A stretch of 64,000 nt of DNA from Desulfuromonadales bacterium. GTDB lineage: Bacteria > Desulfobacterota > Desulfuromonadia > Desulfuromonadales > JAWOCM01. The stretch covers positions 1-64,000 of the forward strand of contig JAWOCM010000091.1 of the NCBI GenBank assembly GCA_046483795.1. Reading direction: 5' to 3'. This document shows positions 3,679 through 64,000 of this stretch, piece by piece (within the stretch, counting starts at the first letter, position 1; each line of letters begins with the position of its first letter). The notes under the pieces are model-generated. The model was not told the DNA's origin. It saw only the letters and a program-made list of their open reading frames with translations, and did not search any database. The translations under genes and the position numbers were made by a program.

Positions 3679-3720
3679 GTGCAAACCAATTATTGATGGT
3701 TCTCGTCAAAACTCTGTGAA

Positions 3721-3847
3721 TGGCTAAGCAAAAATTTCGTCCCACAAGGCAGTGGTGGTTTTTCAGGGGCGAAGGCATACATCAGGTATGTCGATGTCCT
3801 GAAAAAACGCCGTAACGCCGTGGGGCGGACTTTTTGCGACGCCATCA
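3721..3847 (+). repeat. Hairpin MITE-like element, family A, copy 1
   Basis: About 93% identical to 9500..9625 by hand alignment. About 47-nt imperfect terminal inverted repeats (TGGCTAAGCAAAAATTTCG... versus the reverse complement of ...GGACTTTTTGCGACGCCA) surround a central CATAC-N5-GTATG stem. Confidence 0.85.
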
Positions 3848-5368
3848 TCTGTCGATCTTTTCAGGTCCCTTCACGATCGCCCGGCCCGATGCCTGGCCGA
3901 TGCCCCGCAGCATGCCGTTGAAAATGAAATAATGAAAGGGGTAGACCGCTCCCCAGTAAAGAAGCCCCGCAAGGCCCCGCGGCCAGAAACGTCCCCGCTG
4001 GCGCAGCTCGACGGTTCGGTCCTCGTTCTCGCGAAGGGTCAGCTCCAGTGTCGCCTGACCGGGCAGCTTCATCTCGGCGACCAGCAGCAGCCGGTAAGGC
4101 TTGTCGACTGCAGCGACGCGCCAGAAATCGAGAGCGTCGCCGGTATGCAGATCCCGGTCGTGACGCCGGCCGCGACCGAGTCCGACGCCGCCGAAAACCC
4201 GGTCCAGAACGCCGCGAAGCTTCCACAGCCAGTTGGCGTAGTACCAGCCGGTGCGTCCTCCGATGGCGAGGATGGCAGGCCAGATCTCTTCAGCGGTACC
4301 GCTCAACACCGCCCGGCGATGGTCATCGAACACCTTGCCGCCGGCCCAGGGCGGATCTTCGGCCGTGTCCCATTCGACCAGGGTACCGGCATCGGTCCAG
4401 CGGCTTTCCACCTGCTGCTGACGGATCCGGTCGAGCGCAAGACGGATCGTCATGCGGCAGTCGAGCAGGTGTTGCGGTACCAGTTCGCGGATCCGCGTAT
4501 CGCGGCAGACGACAGGATTGCGCAGCCCCTCGGCGAGGGGGCGGGCCAGGGCGGCCGGTACCGGCGTCACCAGGTGAATCCAGTAGGAACTCAGCCGAGG
4601 CGTCAGCACCGGCACCGGGATGATCAGGCGACGGCGCAGTCCGGCCTCCTCTGCATATATCTGCATGAGCTTGCGGTAGGTGATAACCTCTTTTTGACCG
4701 ATATCGAACGTCCCGCCTGCGGTTTCGGGTTTATCGAGACAACCGACCAGGTAGCCCAGCACGTTGCGGATGCCGATCGGCTGGCAGGGGGTATCGACCC
4801 ATCGCGGGGTGATCATCACCGGCAGGCGATCCACCAGGTATCGCAGGATCTCAAAAGAAGCGCTTCCCGAACCGATAATCATCGCCGCCCGCAATACGGT
4901 GACCGGGACCTCTCCGCTAGCCAGGAGCCGGGCCACCTCAAGGCGCGATTTCAGGTGATGGCTGAGCTCCTCGCCCTCCTCCCCCAGCCCGCCAAGATAG
5001 ACGATCCGCTCCATCTGGGCCGACTCGGCAGCCGCCGCCATGTTCCGGGCCGCTTCTGCGTCGGTATCGGCAAAATCCTTGACGCCGGGGTGCATTGAAT
5101 GCACCAGGTAATAGACCGCAAAACAGCCACTGCAGGCCTGCTCGAGTGAGGATGGATCGAAGAGATCGCCGGCGACGATCTCGACATGCGGATGATCGGA
5201 CCAGGAACGGGACTGCAGCTTGGCCGGTGTGCGCGCCATCGCGCGAACGCTGTAGCCCGCCTCGAGCAGACGCGGCACCAGTCGTCCGCCGACATAACCG
5301 CTCGCCCCTGTCACCAGAACAGGTGCTTTCTTCTTTCCTTCATTTCCGCCGGTTTTCTCTGTTTCCAT
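3845..5368 (-). CDS. SDR/NmrA-type NAD(P)-binding protein with C-terminal DUF2867-like domain
   Basis: Track ORF 3845..5398. ATG 5368 (METEK...) has an AAGGGAGAG Shine-Dalgarno sequence. It carries a Rossmann motif (VLVTGASGYVGGRLV). The C-terminal half (WYYANWLWKLRGVLDRVFGGVGLGRGRR) resembles DUF2867. Confidence 0.75.
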   Translation of the reverse strand: METEKTGGNEGKKKAPVLVTGASGYVGGRLVPRLLEAGYSVRAMARTPAKLQSRSWSDHPHVEIVAGDLFDPSSLEQACSGCFAVYYLVHSMHPGVKDFADTDAEAARNMAAAAESAQMERIVYLGGLGEEGEELSHHLKSRLEVARLLASGEVPVTVLRAAMIIGSGSASFEILRYLVDRLPVMITPRWVDTPCQPIGIRNVLGYLVGCLDKPETAGGTFDIGQKEVITYRKLMQIYAEEAGLRRRLIIPVPVLTPRLSSYWIHLVTPVPAALARPLAEGLRNPVVCRDTRIRELVPQHLLDCRMTIRLALDRIRQQQVESRWTDAGTLVEWDTAEDPPWAGGKVFDDHRRAVLSGTAEEIWPAILAIGGRTGWYYANWLWKLRGVLDRVFGGVGLGRGRRHDRDLHTGDALDFWRVAAVDKPYRLLLVAEMKLPGQATLELTLRENEDRTVELRQRGRFWPRGLAGLLYWGAVYPFHYFIFNGMLRGIGQASGRAIVKGPEKIDR

Positions 5369-5444
5369 TCCACTCTCCCTTGTTTTCAGCGGTGCCATGC
5401 GCTAACTTTATGGCCGGATCATCATCGAAACAGGATCATCGCAA

Positions 5445-7749: not shown

Positions 7750-7890
7750 CTCTAACGCAAAGTCGCAAAGGGGGCAAAGCCGCAACGAAAACCGTACTAA
7801 CACACAAGCGACTTTCTTTGCGTCATGCTTTCAATCTTTGCGTCTTTGCGTTGAGACGAGCTTCTTTTGGATTATAAGTCCGTTAAAAAT
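7750..7890 (-). repeat. Hairpin element, family C (ACGCAAAG words), one-ended copy
   Basis: The reverse complement of 7805..7890 is about 90% identical to 32418..32505 (TTTTTAA..GACTTATAA.CCAAAAGAAG.TCGTCTCAACGCAAAGACGCAAAGATTGAAA.CATGACGCAAAGAAAG). The opposite arm (CTAACGCAAAGTCGCAAAGGGGGCAAAGCC) pairs with CTTTGCG words. The far terminus is missing next to the nudC stop. Confidence 0.75.
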
Positions 7891-9451: not shown

Positions 9452-9499
9452 GAAACGCAATGAGCTAATCTGTGATGCTCTTCGCAAAAGCCCGGTGGA

Positions 9500-9625
9500 T
9501 GGCTAAGCAAAAATTTCGCCCTGCAAGGCCTGGTGGTTTTCCAGGGGCGAAGGCATACATCAGGTATGTCGAGGTCCTGAAAAAACGCCGTAACGCCGCA
9601 GGGCGGACTTTTTGCGACGCCATCA
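9500..9625 (+). repeat. Hairpin MITE-like element, family A, copy 2
   Basis: Second copy of the 3721..3847 element in the same orientation. An extra TGCTCTTCGCAAAAG terminus-like word lies just upstream at 9476..9490. Confidence 0.85.
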
Positions 9626-10012
9626 ATCGGTGGTCACTTCGAACTCGGGGGAATCGAGAATCGAGCGCTTGACCGCACACTGGTCTGTGGCCCGGATAAT
9701 CGCCTTCTTGTACTTCTCCGGAAATCCCGTCGGAAGAGTGATCCGCATTGCGACCCTGGAAGGCAGCCGCGTTTCCGGATCCCGCTCCATATCCACCGAC
9801 AGTTTCAGACCCTCGGTCTCGAGCTCGCGCTGATGGCAGAAGCGGAGAGCGAAAAATCCGGCGCAGGTCCCCATAGAGGCCAGGTAGAGATCGAACGGCG
9901 AAGGGGCGCTTCCTTCGCCGCCGTTTTCCTTCGGCTGATCGGTGCGAATGGTAAACCCGTCGACGCGGGCTTCGACAGCAACGCCGCCGGGAAAAGTGAT
10001 GTCCATAGACAT
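9623..10012 (-). CDS. OsmC family peroxiredoxin-like protein
   Basis: Track ORF 9623..10036. ATG 10012 has an AAGGAGA Shine-Dalgarno sequence at 5-nt spacing. OsmC signature: GSAPSPFDLYLASMGTCAG ... ATDQCAVKRSI. Confidence 0.85.
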   Translation of the reverse strand: MSMDITFPGGVAVEARVDGFTIRTDQPKENGGEGSAPSPFDLYLASMGTCAGFFALRFCHQRELETEGLKLSVDMERDPETRLPSRVAMRITLPTGFPEKYKKAIIRATDQCAVKRSILDSPEFEVTTD

Positions 10013-10055
10013 GAGAATCTCCTTTGTGTTTTGCAATAGAGTGAAACCTGAATAC

Positions 10056-10133
10056 GTGAGGGGTGAGGCGTGAGGAGAATAAGCTCAGAGCCTTGGTTTG
10101 CCCCGGGAATTCCCCTCACGCCTCAGCCCTCAC
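10056..10133. repeat. Hairpin built from GTGAGG heptamer words (family D)
   Basis: The left arm GTGAGGGGTGAGGCGTGAGGAG (10056..10077) matches the reverse complement of CCCCTCACGCCTCAGCCCTCAC (10112..10133) at 20 of 22 positions. The loop is about 34 nt. It lies between the pcrA stop and the osmC-family start. Confidence 0.7.
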
Positions 10134-20300: not shown

Positions 20301-20709
20301 CGATCTGGTTTCCGATCGATTCGACCGCCTCCTTCTGGAGGCCCCCCTGTTCGAATGGCTGGCAGAGCGCGACCTACCCGTGTCTACAGCCGAGGTTGAG
20401 CGCCTGGTCGGTCTGGTGCGCTCCCTGCTGTTGTGGCAGCAATGGCTCCAGCAGAAGACACCGGACGCAGCACTGCGCTCTCTGCTTGAAGAGCCCCAAA
20501 CAAGAACACTGATCGGCTGCAATCGTTTCAAAGACAATGTCTGGTTCAACCAGGAGAGCATGGAACTCCTGCTCAACGGCATGGAGATGGCAGCGGAAAT
20601 TTTCTACCCGCCAGCCGGGGCTGTTCCCCTCGTGAGCAAGATCGATCAATATCGCACCGCTTGCCACCAGTCGGGTTACAGTCTGGGAAAATTCTTGCGC
20701 CTCTTTTAA
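17398..20709 (+). CDS. Alpha-amylase family (GH13) glycoside hydrolase/transferase, 1103 aa
   Basis: GGAAGGAA Shine-Dalgarno sequence before ATG 17398. GH13 regions: I = ACDMVPNHTG; II = IIRFDAAMTL (nucleophile Asp); III = LLLAEAFW (acid/base Glu); IV = FMSNPDEE (Asp kept, His replaced by Pro). About 330 aa at the N-terminus and about 400 aa at the C-terminus are unassigned. Confidence 0.8.
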   Translation: MALSPPNSGRNNETTSMSERHVSTESYFLYDLQLNAAFWRNNAVAGRLRSSPPPPLNYSLNAIAEGLSPQLDTPIETGNLALLSALNAVFRHISWSYLAGREVKVEGDHLVIGKRRQRIDGLFDSLKAFVVHFPPAAVVTGETDAEHFFSGGKATDRQTEALVQMFALAVQSRNPALEEERRLIDDEAFQKQSGYRLILERIDRLFGAETSPSPFNQSLSELLSQPLRHSPDDLVGQVAYVRSHWGPLLPEGVLNQVLTSFDLWQEEQQIRGAGPGGPAPVPDYTEVRGTEIRRYSPDADWMPNVVLMAKSIQVWLDQLSRKYQLHLRRLDDIPDAELDLLNQWNITGLWLIGIWERSRASQRIKQMRGNPEAEASAYSLYDYVIAEELGGEAALDNLRERCSRRGIRLACDMVPNHTGICSRWIVEHPDWYIQTDIPPYPGYHYTGPDLCEKDEVSVFIEDGYWDHTEAAVTFKHVDHRTAKERFIYHGNDGTHLPWNDTAQLNFLLPDVRQAVLEEIVDIARSFSIIRFDAAMTLAKKHFQRLWYPQPGGGAGVPSRADFWMSRQDFERAFPVEFWREVVDRIAAEVPDTLLLAEAFWLMEGFFVRTVGMHRVYNSAFMNMLKTEDNARYRNLLKNTLEFDPEILKRFVNFMSNPDEETAVEQFGTGDKYFGVAILLVTLPGLPMFAHGQVEGLREKYGMEYPRAYWDESVDEPLLLHHERMLFPLLGRRPLFSEVENFALFDFYTAEGVNEDVISFSNRLDDQRALVVYHNRYGETSGWIRTAWSPGTDQKSGMENATLASALALGSDETIWRFKDHCSGKSYLRKGRQFNEDEFFLQLGPYEACVFIDFEPLEDPEGEWRTLWRELDGQPATDLDRQRQKLRYSNLHAALVDTLVAMGTPESLTVRQLAPLVEELEMQTGREIDLKALLSALQRDLERLPAEEPRYPMAIAPPLVLLRHLDIGFDLVSDRFDRLLLEAPLFEWLAERDLPVSTAEVERLVGLVRSLLLWQQWLQQKTPDAALRSLLEEPQTRTLIGCNRFKDNVWFNQESMELLLNGMEMAAEIFYPPAGAVPLVSKIDQYRTACHQSGYSLGKFLRLF

Positions 20710-20714
20710 AAACG

Positions 20715-20844
20715 ATGCCTTCGCAAAAAGTCATCTTTTACCACCAAGGCACCAAGGGCACCAAGAAAACATCACTAAGATTCAATGGGTTACCTTTGTG
20801 TCTTGGTGTCTTGGTGGTGGATTTTCGGTTTTTTGCGAGACCAT
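20715..20844 (-). repeat. Hairpin MITE-like element, family B (CACCAAGG words), full copy
   Basis: The reverse complement aligns end to end with 63560..63685 (ATGG.CTCGCAAAAAA.CC..AATCCACCACCAAGACACCAAG.CACAAAG ... TTCTTGGTGCCCTTGGTGCCTT.GTGGT ... TTTTT.CGA). It fills the gap between the GH13 stop and the glgA start. Confidence 0.85.
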
Positions 20845-20860
20845 CATGGAGCGGCAGTCG

Positions 20861-22405
20861 ATGAAAATTCTTATCATAGCCCCGGAAGTCACTCCTTTTG
20901 CCAAGAGCGGCGGTCTTGCCGACGTCGCCGGCAGCCTGCCCTGCGCCCTCAAGAAGCGCGGCCATGACGTGCGCATCGTCATGCCATACTATCGCTCCAT
21001 CGCCGAAAGCGAATTTTCCGCACCGAGAAGCGGTCGGCGAATGACCGTTCTGGTCGAAGAGCAACCCTGTGAGGGGCACCTGCGGACTCTCGACCACGGA
21101 GGGATTCCCGTTCATTTCATCGACAATCCCTTCTTTTTCGATCGCCCCGGCCTTTACGGCGATGCTGCCGGCGACTATCCGGACAACGCTGCACGCTTCG
21201 GTTTTTTTTGTCGAGCTGTCCTGCACATGCTTCGAGGCCTTGACTGGAGTCCTGAAATCCTCCACCTCAACGACTGGCAAACCGCCCTGATACCGGTCCT
21301 GCTGAAGAACGAACTGGAGGGGGAGCCGTTCTACAACGCCATGGCGACAGTGATGACTATCCACAACCTCGGTTACCAGGGAAACTTTCCGCCGACAGTG
21401 CTCAAGACTCTCGGCCTTGATCGAGCACTCTACACCACCGACGGGCTGGAATTTTATCACCAGGTTTCTCTTCTCAAAGGCGGCATCCTCTTTGCCGATC
21501 TGCTGACTACTGTCAGCGAAACCTACTGCCGCGAAATCCAGACTCCGGCGATGGGGCACGGCTTCGACGGCATTCTGAGAAGCCGGCGGGAGAAGCTTTT
21601 CGGTGTCATCAACGGCCTCGATACCGAGCTGTGGAATCCCTCCGGCGACCCGGCTTTACCACAACCCTACTCGGTCGACTCTCTGGCGGGAAAAGCAGAG
21701 GACAAGTCGGCCCTCCAGGAAGAACTCGGTCTGGACATTCAGCCCGGGATCCCCATTCTGGCCGTTATCTCCCGGCTCGACCGGCAAAAAGGAATGGATC
21801 TGATCCTGGAGGTCTGGGAAGAACTGATGCTGAGAAAGGTCCAGTTCGTGCTGCTCGGCACAGGAGATCCGAAACTGATGCAAGCTTTCTCCCTTTGCAC
21901 AAAGGACCATGCCCGGCAGGCCTCCATCAATCTGGAGTTCGACGAGGCCCTCTCCCGCAGAATTTATGCCGGCGCAGACATGCTGCTCGTTCCCAGCCGC
22001 TACGAGCCGTGCGGTCTGGCCCAGCTGATTGCACTGCGATATGGAACCGTCCCCCTTGTGCGCAGAACCGGCGGACTCGCCGATACCATCACCGACGTTG
22101 CCGTCGATCCTGAAAAGGGCAACGGCTTTACTTTTGACATGCTGACGGGGGAGAATATGCTTGACGCCATCGACCGTGCTCTGGAACTCTATCGGGACGA
22201 GGTGCGATGGAAGGACGTCATGCGCCGGGGCATGAACGCCGATCACTCGTGGGACCGTTCGGCCCTCGAGTACGAACGACTTTACGGAACAGCTCTGGAG
22301 AATCGACGTGAACAAGACGAACAAGGAACAGCCGCAGGAGGAAGAGGAAGAGGAAGAGGAAGAGGAAGAGGAAGCGGAGACATCCCGTTTCCCGGAACTC
22401 GATGA
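20861..22405 (+). CDS. glgA: Glycogen (starch) synthase GlgA
   Basis: Track ORF 20798..22405. ATG 20861 follows GGAGCGG. The canonical N-terminus is MKILIIAPEVTPFAKSGGLADVAGSLP. The last about 30 aa (EQDEQGTAAGGRGRGRGRGRGSGDIPFPGTR) are a low-complexity tail produced by reading the GAGGAA repeat. Confidence 0.9.
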   Translation: MKILIIAPEVTPFAKSGGLADVAGSLPCALKKRGHDVRIVMPYYRSIAESEFSAPRSGRRMTVLVEEQPCEGHLRTLDHGGIPVHFIDNPFFFDRPGLYGDAAGDYPDNAARFGFFCRAVLHMLRGLDWSPEILHLNDWQTALIPVLLKNELEGEPFYNAMATVMTIHNLGYQGNFPPTVLKTLGLDRALYTTDGLEFYHQVSLLKGGILFADLLTTVSETYCREIQTPAMGHGFDGILRSRREKLFGVINGLDTELWNPSGDPALPQPYSVDSLAGKAEDKSALQEELGLDIQPGIPILAVISRLDRQKGMDLILEVWEELMLRKVQFVLLGTGDPKLMQAFSLCTKDHARQASINLEFDEALSRRIYAGADMLLVPSRYEPCGLAQLIALRYGTVPLVRRTGGLADTITDVAVDPEKGNGFTFDMLTGENMLDAIDRALELYRDEVRWKDVMRRGMNADHSWDRSALEYERLYGTALENRREQDEQGTAAGGRGRGRGRGRGSGDIPFPGTR

Positions 22406-32375: not shown

Positions 32376-32425
32376 AGGGTCCTGCGCTTGACATCCGCCA
32401 CGACTCACCTATCTTTTTAATTCAG

Positions 32426-32579
32426 ACTTATAACCCAAAAGAAGGTCGTCTCAACGCAAAGACGCAAAGATTGAAAACATGACGCAAAGAAAGGCACGAA
32501 GGGCATCCTCTTTCCCCTTTGCGTCTTTCAGTTTTCTTGGCGTCTTAGCGCTAAAGCCTTTGTTTTGGTTATAGGCCCG
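32426..32579 (+). mobile_element. Hairpin MITE-like element, family C (ACGCAAAG words), full copy
   Basis: Terminal inverted repeats are ACTTATAACCCAAAAGAAGG and the reverse complement of CCTTTGTTTTGGTTATAGGCCCG. The arms of about 70 nt are made of ACGCAAAG/CTTTGCGT words. It is flanked by the imperfect direct repeat TTTTAATTCAG (32415..32425) / TTTTAATTTCAG (32580..32591). Confidence 0.75.
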
Positions 32580-62230: not shown

Positions 62231-63487
62231 TTATCCCCTGACCTGACCGTCCCCGAGGACGATGAACTTGCGGGTGGTCAGATCCTCCAGGCCCATCGGA
62301 CCGAAGGAATGCAACTTGGTCGTGGAGATGCCGATCTCGGCACCGAGCCCGAACTGGTTGCCGTCGGAGAAGCGACTCGAGGCATTGACCATGACGACGC
62401 TGGAGTTGACTTCCCTGATAAATCGCTGGGAACGGGCATAATCCCGGGTGACGATCACCTCTGTGTGGAGTGAGCCGTAGGTGTTGATATGGTCGATGGC
62501 CTGGTCCATGTCGTCGACGACACGAACGGACAGGATCAGATCGAGATATTCCTCCGACCAGTCTTCCTCTGTGGCGGCAATGACTGCAGGAGCAAACTCC
62601 CGGGTCGTCTCACAGCCGCGCACCTCGACGCCCTTGGCCCGCAGGCTCTCGACCGCGCGCGGCACGAAGGTCTCGGCAATGTCCTTGTGTATCAGCAGGG
62701 TCTCCATGGAGTTGCACACTCCCGGACGCTGCACCTTGGCATTGACACAGATATCTTCGGCCATGTCGAAATCGGCAGTGGCGTCGACATAGGTATGACA
62801 GACACCCTTGTAATGCTTGATGACGGGAATGCGCGAGTTCTCGCTGACGAAACGGATCAGCCCTTCACCGCCCCGGGGAATGATCAGATCGATCTCGTTC
62901 TCTAATTTCAACAGTTCGGTGACAGCCGAGCGATCCGTGGTCGTGACCACCTGGATCGCCGACTCCGGGAGCCCCATTTTTTTCATTTCATTCCTGAGAA
63001 TCACGCCGATGGCGGTGTTGGAATGAATCGCTTCGCTACCGCCTCGCAGCACGACGGCATTTCCGCTTTTCAGACACAAACCCGCGGCATCGGCGGTCAC
63101 GTTGGGACGCGACTCGTAAATGATGCCGATCACTCCGAGCGCAATGCGCATTCGCCCGACCTGCAACCCGTTGGGCCGGCGCCACATGCCTGTAATTTCG
63201 CCCACCGGGTCGGAGAGAGCGGCCACCTCTCGCAGACCTTCGACCATCGCCTTGATCCGCTCTTCATCGAGCACCAGACGATCGATCATCGCCGGGGACA
63301 AGCCCTTTTGGCGACAGGCTACGAGGTCCTTCTCATTCTCCGTCATCAACGTTTCGGCGGCGGATTCCAGTCCATTCGCCATGCAATGCAGCAGTTCATT
63401 CTTGACGCCGGAGGACAGGTTTGCCATGACCCGCGACGCCTTTCTGGCGTCTCGCGCCACCTGAAGCATCTCGTCATAAACGCTCAT
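62231..63487 (-). CDS. proA: Glutamate-5-semialdehyde dehydrogenase ProA
   Basis: 418 aa with [14 protein letters not shown] and the catalytic Cys in VCNSMETLL. Confidence 0.92.
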
Positions 63488-63559
63488 TTCGAATACTCCC
63501 TCTCTTTGCAGACAGCCGACCGGCGTCCCCAGTAGACCATTTCGCTCGAATCAAATCTT

Positions 63560-63685
63560 ATGGCCTCGCAAAAAAAACCACAATCCACCACCAAGACACC
63601 AAGGCACAAAGAAAACCCATTGATTTTTTTAATACTTTCTTGGTGCCCTTGGTGCCTTAGTGGTGACAAATGATTTTTCGAGAAT
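63560..63685 (+). mobile_element. Hairpin MITE-like element, family B, full copy with 12-bp flanking direct repeat
   Basis: 126 bp, ATGGCCTCGCAAAAAAAACC...GATTTTTCGAGAAT. The arms are made of CACCAAG / CTTGGTG words. A perfect direct repeat GAATCAAATCTT flanks it at 63548..63559 and 63686..63697; the second copy contains the proB stop codon. Confidence 0.85.
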
Positions 63686-63688
63686 GAA

Positions 63689-64000
63689 TCAAATCTTGTT
63701 CTTCAGCACCATATTGTCGCGATGCACCACCTCATCGCCGTACTTGTATCCGAGCAGCCCTTCGATCTCGGTCGAGTTGCGCCCCATGATTTTCATCATT
63801 TCAGTCAAATCGTAACCGATGACCCCTTTGGCGATCTCGACGCCGGCCAGCGAACACAACCGCACGGCATCACCGCGCTGAAAAACGCCCTCGATTTTTT
63901 TCACCCCTGAGGGCAAAAGGCTTTTTCCGCCGTCGAGCAGGGCCTGACAGGCGCCGTCATCGAGAAACAGAACCCCCTTGGGCCTGGTGAATGAAATCCA
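63689..64000 (-). CDS. proB: Glutamate 5-kinase ProB (C-terminal PUA part only; 5' end beyond the window)
   Basis: The frame is open to the window end. The C-terminal PUA-domain sequence is ...GVKKIEGVFQRGDAVRLCSLAGVEIAKGVIGYDLTEMMKIMGRNSTEIEGLLGYKYGDEVVHRDNMVLKNKI. Confidence 0.85.
   Translation of the reverse strand, partial: WISFTRPKGVLFLDDGACQALLDGGKSLLPSGVKKIEGVFQRGDAVRLCSLAGVEIAKGVIGYDLTEMMKIMGRNSTEIEGLLGYKYGDEVVHRDNMVLKNKI

Follow-up and report, generated by a model that had tools for sequence, protein, structure and literature searches.

A small palindromic repeat with a flanking direct repeat between proB and proA of a Desulfuromonadales bacterium

The spacer between proB and proA of a Desulfuromonadales bacterium contains a palindromic element, called B1 below, located near the end of the 64,000-nucleotide stretch of DNA that we analyzed and call the window (NCBI GenBank assembly GCA_046483795.1, contig JAWOCM010000091.1, positions 1 to 64,000 of the forward strand, nearly all of this 64,004-bp contig). 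B1 is probably the relic of one copy of a short palindromic repeat that is mosaic and non-autonomous and resembles a MITE (miniature inverted-repeat transposable element) or a bacterial interspersed mosaic element (BIME). The original prediction had taken a perfect 12-bp repeat on both sides of the element as the classical footprint of transposition, a target-site duplication. In this form the interpretation was not supported: two of the 12 nucleotides appear to belong to the element, no abutting repeat was seen at other copies that share these ends, and the insertion appears to be old. B1 is an ordinary intergenic repeat and not a fresh transposition footprint.

The repeat family and its ends

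We found the window to carry a dispersed, non-coding, palindromic multicopy element, as had been predicted, with two copies of one family (family B, elements B1 and B2) and two copies of another (family A, elements A1 and A2) in the 64 kb (Table 1). B2 is located at an unrelated locus, in the orientation opposite to that of B1, and the two copies have 83% column identity, loop included. The ends of B2 are CGATGCCTTCGCAAAAAG ... TTTTTTGCGAGACCATCA. The sequence TGATGGCGTCGCAAAAAG and its complement bound B2 as well as the otherwise different A1 and A2, and all three copies have TGATGG-NN-TCGCAAAAA and its complement at their two ends. A search of the window for the end motif produced 5 matches compared to 0.13 expected.

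Over 95 nt, A1 and A2 share 96% identity, and two further copies of family A, L252 and L297, were located on IMG/VR contigs. In L297 two ends are directly joined as GCCATGGC, which indicates that the units combine mosaically. Contigs of sister genomes (L245, L002, and L246) break inside copies of the element; therefore, the element is repeated in these genomes too. The pattern TCGCAAAAA-N70-100-TTTTTGCGA had 42 matches in IMG/VR, about the chance level and none of them related, and in a scan of a genome collection with the 18-mer CTTGGTGCCCTTGGTGCC the matches listed were coding sequence of Actinobacteria (GTKGTK). We also observed in family A (3694-3750 compared with 9473-9529) a doubled end on one side, TGATGGTTCTCGTCAAAAC, 4 nt, TGAATGGCTAAGCAAAAA. 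The outer 24 nt of this family are about 74% conserved between copies, compared to 88-96% for the remainder.

The outer arms can be written as TGATGG-NN-TCGCAAAAA(G) ... (C)TTTTTGCGA-NN-CCATCA, i.e., as TG...CA ends. As we would describe the architecture, an inner hairpin sits between these arms and consists of three CACCAAG heptamers with their complement. The arms of this hairpin occupy 63585-63611 and 63635-63665 in B1, and the inner hairpin of B2 spans 20740-20818. The RNA of B1 read in the proBA sense folds at -56.6 kcal/mol (z = -6.2), and the sense strand is 15.7 kcal/mol more stable than the antisense strand. The element has 126-134 bp and is non-coding; the open reading frames (ORFs) across it are only short and read through the hairpin arms. 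The best match of B1 in Rfam was a microRNA model, not meaningful here, with 29.7 bits against a gathering score of 87.

Table 1. Coordinates of the elements and adjoining features in the window.
Feature	Position	Strand	Remarks
proA	62231..63487	minus	Glutamate-5-semialdehyde dehydrogenase
Rest of the proB-proA spacer (60 nt)	63488..63547	minus	Holds the proA ribosome-binding site GAGGGAG
12-mer, proA side	63548..63559		Sense AAGATTTGATTC; the AA at the start of the sense strand stands where relatives have the terminal CA of the element
Element B1, family-conserved ends	63558..63691	minus	proBA sense TGATTC...GGCCATAA; consensus TGATGG...CCATCA
126-bp insert as originally delimited	63560..63685		Lies between the two 12-mers
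Inner hairpin of B1	63585..63665		CACCAAG-type arm and CTTGGTG-type arm; 23-nt loop containing AACCCATTGA
12-mer, proB side	63686..63697		Last two proB codons, stop and three further nt
proB, 3' part	63689..63916	minus	ORF coordinates; proB itself runs on to the contig end, which truncates it
proB stop codon TGA	63689..63691	minus	Inside the right 12-mer
Element B2, second copy of family B	20713..20846	plus	Between an alpha-amylase-like gene (stop 20707-20709) and glgA (start 20861)
Element A1, family A	3694..3847	plus	Outer ends as in family B; terminal TCA (3845-3847) is the stop of gene 3845..5398(-)
Element A2, family A	9473..9625	plus	Terminal TCA (9623-9625) is the stop of the OsmC-like gene 9623..10036(-)

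The flanking repeat and the boundaries of B1

The 12-mer GAATCAAATCTT has only two occurrences in the window with one mismatch allowed. Both of them abut the 126-bp insert, and the right one includes the proB stop codon; in these respects the original description was accurate. The chance that an exact repeat of at least 10 nt abuts both ends is about 1e-5 (4^-10 multiplied by ~16 end offsets), and the duplication is therefore taken as real. The question is how many of its bases are flank.

Three relatives inform on this junction. The closest one, L245 (Logan SRR34348026), has a proA gene 94.6% identical in nucleotides and 96.4% in amino acids to that of the window, and its contig begins within this element, inserted at the same site, as ...GTGAGACCATCA then GATTTGATTTGAGCGAAATGG...; the contig of L002 (SRR30010511; proA 85.0% identical in nucleotides) starts as ...GCAAAACCATCA then GGTTTGATTGG... 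In both the element ends with CCATCA, followed by GATTTGATTT in L245 and by GGTTTGATTG in L002, where the window has CCATAA. The third, L001 (GCA_011775005.1; proA 84.0% identical in nucleotides), has an empty site, which the original prediction had proposed to look for: its proB ends with AAC AAG GCC TGA (AAC AAG ATT TGA in the window) and proA follows 37 nt on. ProB is equally long with and without the element, ending as ...VLKNKI* in the window and as ...VLRNKA* in L001. A protein search with the 103-aa C-terminus of ProB found no close relative.

From the CCATCA ends in L245 and L002 it appears that two of the 12 bases are the element's own terminal CA, changed from C to A in the window, and that the ancestral repeat had at most 10-11 nt (GATTTGATTC). 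The 12-of-12 match could then be composed of the ancestral repeat GATTTGATTC, the terminal A of the element, and the later C-to-A change. Thus the "perfect 12-bp" repeat appears to be partly an accident.

At the proB side, the hexamer TGATTC inside the 12-mer aligns with the terminal hexamer of the family. The end TGATTCATTCTCGAAAAATCATTTGTCACC can be aligned with the B2 end CGATGCCTTCGCAAAAAGTCATCTTTTACC without gaps and with 21 identities in 30 positions, and in both elements the hairpin follows 27 nt after the start of the terminal hexamer. Since the alignment is in register, TGATTC with the proB stop may be an end of the element rather than flank. The family-conserved ends of B1 are at 63558 (TTATGG, consensus TGATGG) and 63691 (GAATCA, consensus CCATCA), and a length of 134 bp appears more likely than 126 bp. 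The terminal inverted repeats as originally described are imperfect, and the ends of the family are degraded in B1 (TGATTCATTCTCGAAAAA / TTTTTTTTGCGAGGCCATAA). The delimitation has to be revised as well, with a part of the 12-mer assigned to the element.

The terminal TGA of the ends has a further property. It coincides with the stop codon of proB at B1, it is the stop of a DUF2867/NAD-binding gene at A1 and of the OsmC-like gene at A2 (where the OsmC Pfam domain ends 3 residues earlier), and at positions 272-274 of L252 it likewise ends a candidate (unverified) ORF. B2 starts 3 nt after a TAA stop. Insertions would survive, we suggest, where the terminal TGA serves as, or replaces, the stop codon of the adjacent gene.

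A direct repeat abutting the element was absent from B2, A1, A2, and L252, the four copies with these ends besides B1. Hence a target-site duplication of constant length at every copy was not observed, and the repeat at B1 would not be a family-wide target-site duplication. There was no duplication of 3-4 bp at A1, A2, or B2 in the window, nor was there an excess of direct repeats, relative to a permuted control, at 117 metagenomic CACCAAG hairpins. A short repeat at A1, TCTG...TCTG, was considered as a 4-bp target-site duplication of an inner unit; it was not reproduced in A2 or L252 and was treated as chance. The palindrome TGATGGCCATCA, considered as a pre-existing target, was not enriched in the window (5 matches compared to 3.0 expected).

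At the B2 site, the window and L246 (from the sister genome) both carry the element. In L247 and L248, whose GlgA proteins are 84% and 83% identical to that of the window, the hairpin is absent, and 15-18 nt (TGGCGATGACCATCA and GGCGCTGCAAGACCATCA; L247 1474-1492, L248 1437-1457) are kept in the interval that separates the upstream stop codon from the ribosome-binding site of glgA. These sequences resemble the outermost bases of both ends and may be either collapsed remnants or a pre-existing end-like site. If they are collapsed remnants, B2 is ancient too.

There is also a perfect 10-nt repeat, GAAAATTCTT, at 20687-20696 and 20863-20872, 16 nt outside each end of B2. As a target-site duplication this GAATTCTT-type 10-mer was rejected, because both copies are native coding sequence in the hairpin-less L247 and L248. 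In its left copy, three substitutions in the lineage of the window all made it identical to the right copy.

These observations bear on the possibility that B1 is a classical MITE moved by a DDE transposase, with the element at 63560-63685, the 12-mer as pure flank, and a target-site duplication of 10-12 bp. The repeat is perfect and abuts both ends, the element is multicopy and non-coding with inverted-repeat ends, L001 is empty with its proB end AAGGCCTGAGCC orthologous to the proB-side 12-mer, and the Geobacter MITE Chunjie has direct repeats of 9 bp. We nevertheless regard such an origin as unlikely. Two of the 12 nt are the terminal CA of the element in the sister genomes; the proB-side end so defined is devoid of TGATGG, while the adjacent "flank" TGATTC mimics TGATGG in register; B2, A1, A2, and L252 have no duplication despite the close match of A1 and A2 (96% identity over 95 nt); and a comparable perfect 10-mer near B2 is native on both sides.

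One could also assume that an element with TG...CA ends and a 4-bp duplication, GATT, was inserted directly upstream of an end-like native proB sequence, TGATTC (the stop codon and three more nucleotides). The element's own TGA would now end proB, and the native TGATTC would be located downstream of the element. As background, IS3-family elements have TG...CA ends and duplications of 3-5 bp, and IS911 and IS30 insert beside end-like sequences; we mention them as a lead only. The ungapped alignment with the B2 end, the equal 27-nt distances to the hairpin, the use of the terminal TGA as a stop at A1, A2, and L252, and the presence of TGG on either side of the collapsed B2 remnant in L247 would all agree with this scheme. 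It demands, however, that the first six nucleotides of the element be equal to the native six; the TGA is forced by the stop codon, and the TTC would be a coincidence of about 1/64 or a product of gene conversion. Together with the missing 3-4-bp duplications at A1, A2, and B2, this requirement leaves the scheme doubtful in our view.

Several points weigh against our own preference for a relic mosaic palindrome. Apart from staggered-cut insertion, it is hard to see what would make a 10-nt repeat that abuts the element. The sample behind the statement that the family has no target-site duplication is small, consisting of five copies with these ends, and the junctions of L245 and L002 were compared on the proA side only. 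The "empty" B2 sequences (CGATG joined to ACCATCA; ..TGCAAGACCATCA) may be deletion remnants, in which case the B2 boundaries would not be proven by them. Finally, no autonomous partner or mobilizing enzyme was found on this one contig. Indeed, none of the 55 ORFs of at least 100 aa in the window had a transposase or integrase Pfam domain, as the original prediction had said, and the same Pfam search revealed no RAYT or TnpA gene. The description of the element as non-autonomous and MITE-like can be kept as far as small size, lack of coding capacity, inverted-repeat ends, multiple copies, and filled and empty sites are concerned; a constant target-site duplication is what it lacks. We would assume that an enzyme encoded elsewhere in the genome recognized the ends and spread the copies.

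Age and drift of the insertion

Since lineages that differ at 13-33% of the proA third positions share B1, its insertion appears to be old, preceding the split of three lineages, and not recent. When the window is compared with L245, about 17% of the positions of B1 are different, as are 13% of those of the adjacent spacer and 13% of the third positions of proA; L245 also has one CTTGGTG heptamer disrupted, with no compensating change. By these numbers B1 appears to drift at about the neutral rate and not to be conserved. In the course of events that we prefer for this relic repeat, the element would have entered the position of the proB stop codon in the ancestor of at least three sampled Desulfuromonadales lineages and drifted about neutrally afterwards.

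The original prediction had also suggested that the hairpin, placed between two normally tightly co-transcribed genes, may affect expression of proA. The premise turned out to be weak: proB-proA spacers of 37-96 nt are usual in this order, and some of them carry other hairpins. For example, D. versatilis and Desulfuromonas sp. AOP6 have spacers of 69 nt and 76 nt without such an element. An effect on proA expression is possible, and the neutral drift argues against a selected role of the element. The long hairpin in the proBA transcript would be tolerated and would, at most, modulate the ratio of proB to proA expression.

In its proA-proximal half, the remaining spacer (63488..63547) shares homology with the spacer of L001, where the site is empty. 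The spacer behind B1 was also considered as a decayed copy of either the 3' end of proB or the element; its similarity to them was not significant (p = 0.95; p = 0.2-0.97), and this explanation of the spacer was dropped. In another relative, L003 (ProA 80% identical), the proB-proA spacer has a different hairpin at 2905-2978 with heptamers of the GGGGCTG/ACTGGGG type, which resemble the unit CCCCAGT of the cyanobacterial STRR1 repeat.

Near B2, the predicted GlgA of the window has a (Gly-Arg) repeat tail, ...GGRGRGRGRGRGSGDIPFPGTR (22300-22405), which may be a low-complexity extension; the protein has 514 aa compared to 483-518 aa in homologs. Just downstream of glgA, on the opposite strand, L246 and L247 have a small gene of an HNH endonuclease (L246 1781-2104, L247 3176-3478). 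The plus-strand ORF tested at this position in the window (~22.4-23.0 kb) had no Pfam match.

The CACCAAG hairpin and known repeats

The two-arm pattern CACCAAG-N-CACCAAG ... CTTGGTG-NN-CTTGGTG was detected at no fewer than 120 loci of JGI metagenomes (L125-L244) from soil, sediment, and wetland. Among the matches listed there were 119 distinct hairpins with arms of the form (tta)AC-CACCAAG-a-CACCAAG-g-n-CACCAAG / CTTGGTG-nt-CTTGGTG-t-CTTGGTG-GT; their loops vary from 1 to 68 nt (median 29), and loops and flanks are unrelated. The same hairpin is present in genomes labeled as Holophagales, Holophagaceae, Nitrospirota, Phycisphaeraceae, and Ca. Propionivibrio (L027, L058, L060, L062, L068, L075, and L077). 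Most of the hairpins follow a long ORF, at a distance of 4-40 nt from its stop codon, and several sit inside outer hairpins that are built from other heptamers.

No recurrent neighbor gene emerged when 2,067 ORFs at 127 hairpin loci were clustered (only ABC transporters recurred, at 6 loci), and the ORFs adjoining these loci included no RAYT or TnpA. In the 71 metagenomic cases compared, the better-folding strand was not biased to the transcribed strand (30 vs 41, p = 0.24); therefore, the 15.7 kcal/mol advantage of the sense strand of B1 is not evidence of function. The same count gave no sign of selection at the RNA level, looked for as a G-U asymmetry toward the transcribed strand. Rfam had no matches in 20 related loci, a plasmid BLAST search and a search of IMG/VR with the hairpin pattern returned nothing, and a literature search for two-unit CACCAAG/CTTGGTG strings returned one unrelated match and no relevant record.

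It is conceivable, though we hold the idea only tentatively and think it rather less probable than its opposite, that the hairpin core is an undescribed module shared across phyla: (tta)AC-CACCAAG-R-CACCAAG-RR-CACCAAG, a variable loop, and CTTGGTG-YY-CTTGGTG-Y-CTTGGTG-GT. Hairpins of a like architecture with other heptamers occur in the window at 10056-10133 (GTGAGGG/CCCTCAC) and at 7754-7852 and 32453-32533 (CGCAAAG/CTTTGCG); a 69-nt arm with 96% identity is common to the latter two (7812-7880 and 32425-32493, inverted).

For Geobacter metallireducens, three classes (1-3) of tandem arrays with heptanucleotide or octanucleotide units, each array having its partner on the other strand, were described as "predicted global regulator binding sites" in the genome paper (Aklujkar et al. 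2009, PMC2700814). One class-3 pair lies between proB and proA, and G. sulfurreducens has a different multicopy sequence there (PMC2700814). The elements considered here are from the same bacterial group and are similarly composed of 3-5 tandem units of 7-8 nt, paired at a variable distance, hairpin-forming, multicopy, and intergenic. With CACCAAG-R-CACCAAG-RR-CACCAAG / CTTGGTG-YY-CTTGGTG-Y-CTTGGTG, they belong to the class of paired heptanucleotide repeats of the Geobacter type, a descriptive class and not a mechanistic family. The heptamers are different, MTYCTGA, TCTCCGTS, and GTTGCTYN in Geobacter compared to CACCAAG here. In addition, for the Geobacter arrays outer arms of the type TGATGG..TCGCAAAAA were not described and flanking duplications were not reported, and the arrays were proposed to be protein-binding sites rather than mobile DNA (PMC2700814).

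Could B1, likewise, be a structural or regulatory palindrome of the host, such as an array of protein-binding heptamers, a terminator, or an mRNA-stabilizing hairpin, and not a transposon? Aklujkar et al. took their paired arrays, one of them between proB and proA, for sites of IHF/HU-like regulators; here, conservation across phyla is seen in the CACCAAG heptamers but not in loops and flanks, the hairpins follow stop codons at 4-40 nt, and B1 has an intercistronic position and a strong RNA fold. On the other hand, B1 drifts about neutrally and its heptamers break uncompensated in L245, L001 has an empty site, and L247 and L248 have lost the hairpin. The absence of a strand bias among the 71 cases points in the same direction, as does the terminator scan, which called no canonical terminator at B1 (its U8 run sits within the outer stem). 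Near-identical copies at unrelated loci would, moreover, still need a means of spread. Taken as a purely host-encoded structure, B1 is quite improbable to us.

REP/BIME elements, the REPINs of gamma-proteobacteria, ERIC, and Correia-type elements are extragenic palindromes located after stop codons or between genes of operons, in mosaic or nested units. REP and REPIN make no target duplication, Correia elements have a TA duplication, and transcribed hairpins of this kind can alter relative expression. The element considered here differs from REP/REPIN in having no GTAG-type head, in its tandem-heptamer arms, and in the lack of a RAYT gene in the window.

In a REPIN/REP-like or IS200/IS605-like mechanism, a Y1 (HUH) transposase or a RAYT would move the hairpin in single-stranded form and insert it next to a short specific sequence, here TGAT, with no duplication. 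Several features fit: the whole element is a long hairpin, a flanking duplication is absent from 4 of the 5 copies, every outer boundary has the conserved TGAT, the modules are mosaic or nested (as in the ends joined as GCCATGGC in L297), and the copies are extragenic and just behind genes. We rate it very improbable all the same, given that the ends start with TGATGG with no GTAG-type REP signature, that the arms are heptamer arrays plus A/T runs, that neither the window nor the surroundings of the 127 hairpin loci revealed a RAYT or TnpA, and that the 10-nt duplication at B1 would be left unexplained.

Cyanobacterial STRR sequences are heptanucleotide repeats found mainly in direct tandem arrays, with CCCCAGT as the STRR1 unit. 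Tandem 7-nt units are known as well from the TAACTGA repeats of Beggiatoaceae (PMC4679880). Both resemble the present hairpins in being abundant intergenic 7-nt units with no known function that are shared by distant taxa; in contrast to the obligate inverted pairs with a loop seen here, they are mainly direct arrays, and their heptamers are others.

The MITE Chunjie of G. uraniireducens Rf4 (Chen et al. 2008, as summarized in PMC3184786) is, according to this summary, 178-235 bp long and A+T-rich, with terminal inverted repeats of 21 bp and consistent 9-bp direct repeats. By that description, it is similar to the element considered here in its small size and lack of coding capacity, inverted-repeat ends, very stable hairpin, direct repeats, and location inside an operon that is not destroyed (PMC3184786). 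It differs in length (126-134 bp here) and in its ends, and a flanking repeat was observed here in 1 of 5 copies; this comparison is of the summarized description.

Palindromes of heptamer repeats in the proB-proA spacer are already known from the Geobacter literature, and B1 by itself matters little. More general is the observation that a perfect flanking repeat alone is insufficient for calling a target-site duplication: sister genomes moved the boundaries of the element into the "duplication", and the perfect 10-mer near B2, native on both sides, is a warning against reading repeats as footprints. The element ends that repeatedly provide the stop codon of the adjacent gene are a lead worth following. 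The cross-phylum CACCAAG hairpin makes the old question of heptamer-repeat palindromes more approachable. If it is indeed a shared module, a widely conserved protein would recognize the heptamer array, and the hairpins would spread with no duplication and target palindromes; B1 and B2 would then be CACCAAG hairpins nested in a lineage-specific outer palindrome.

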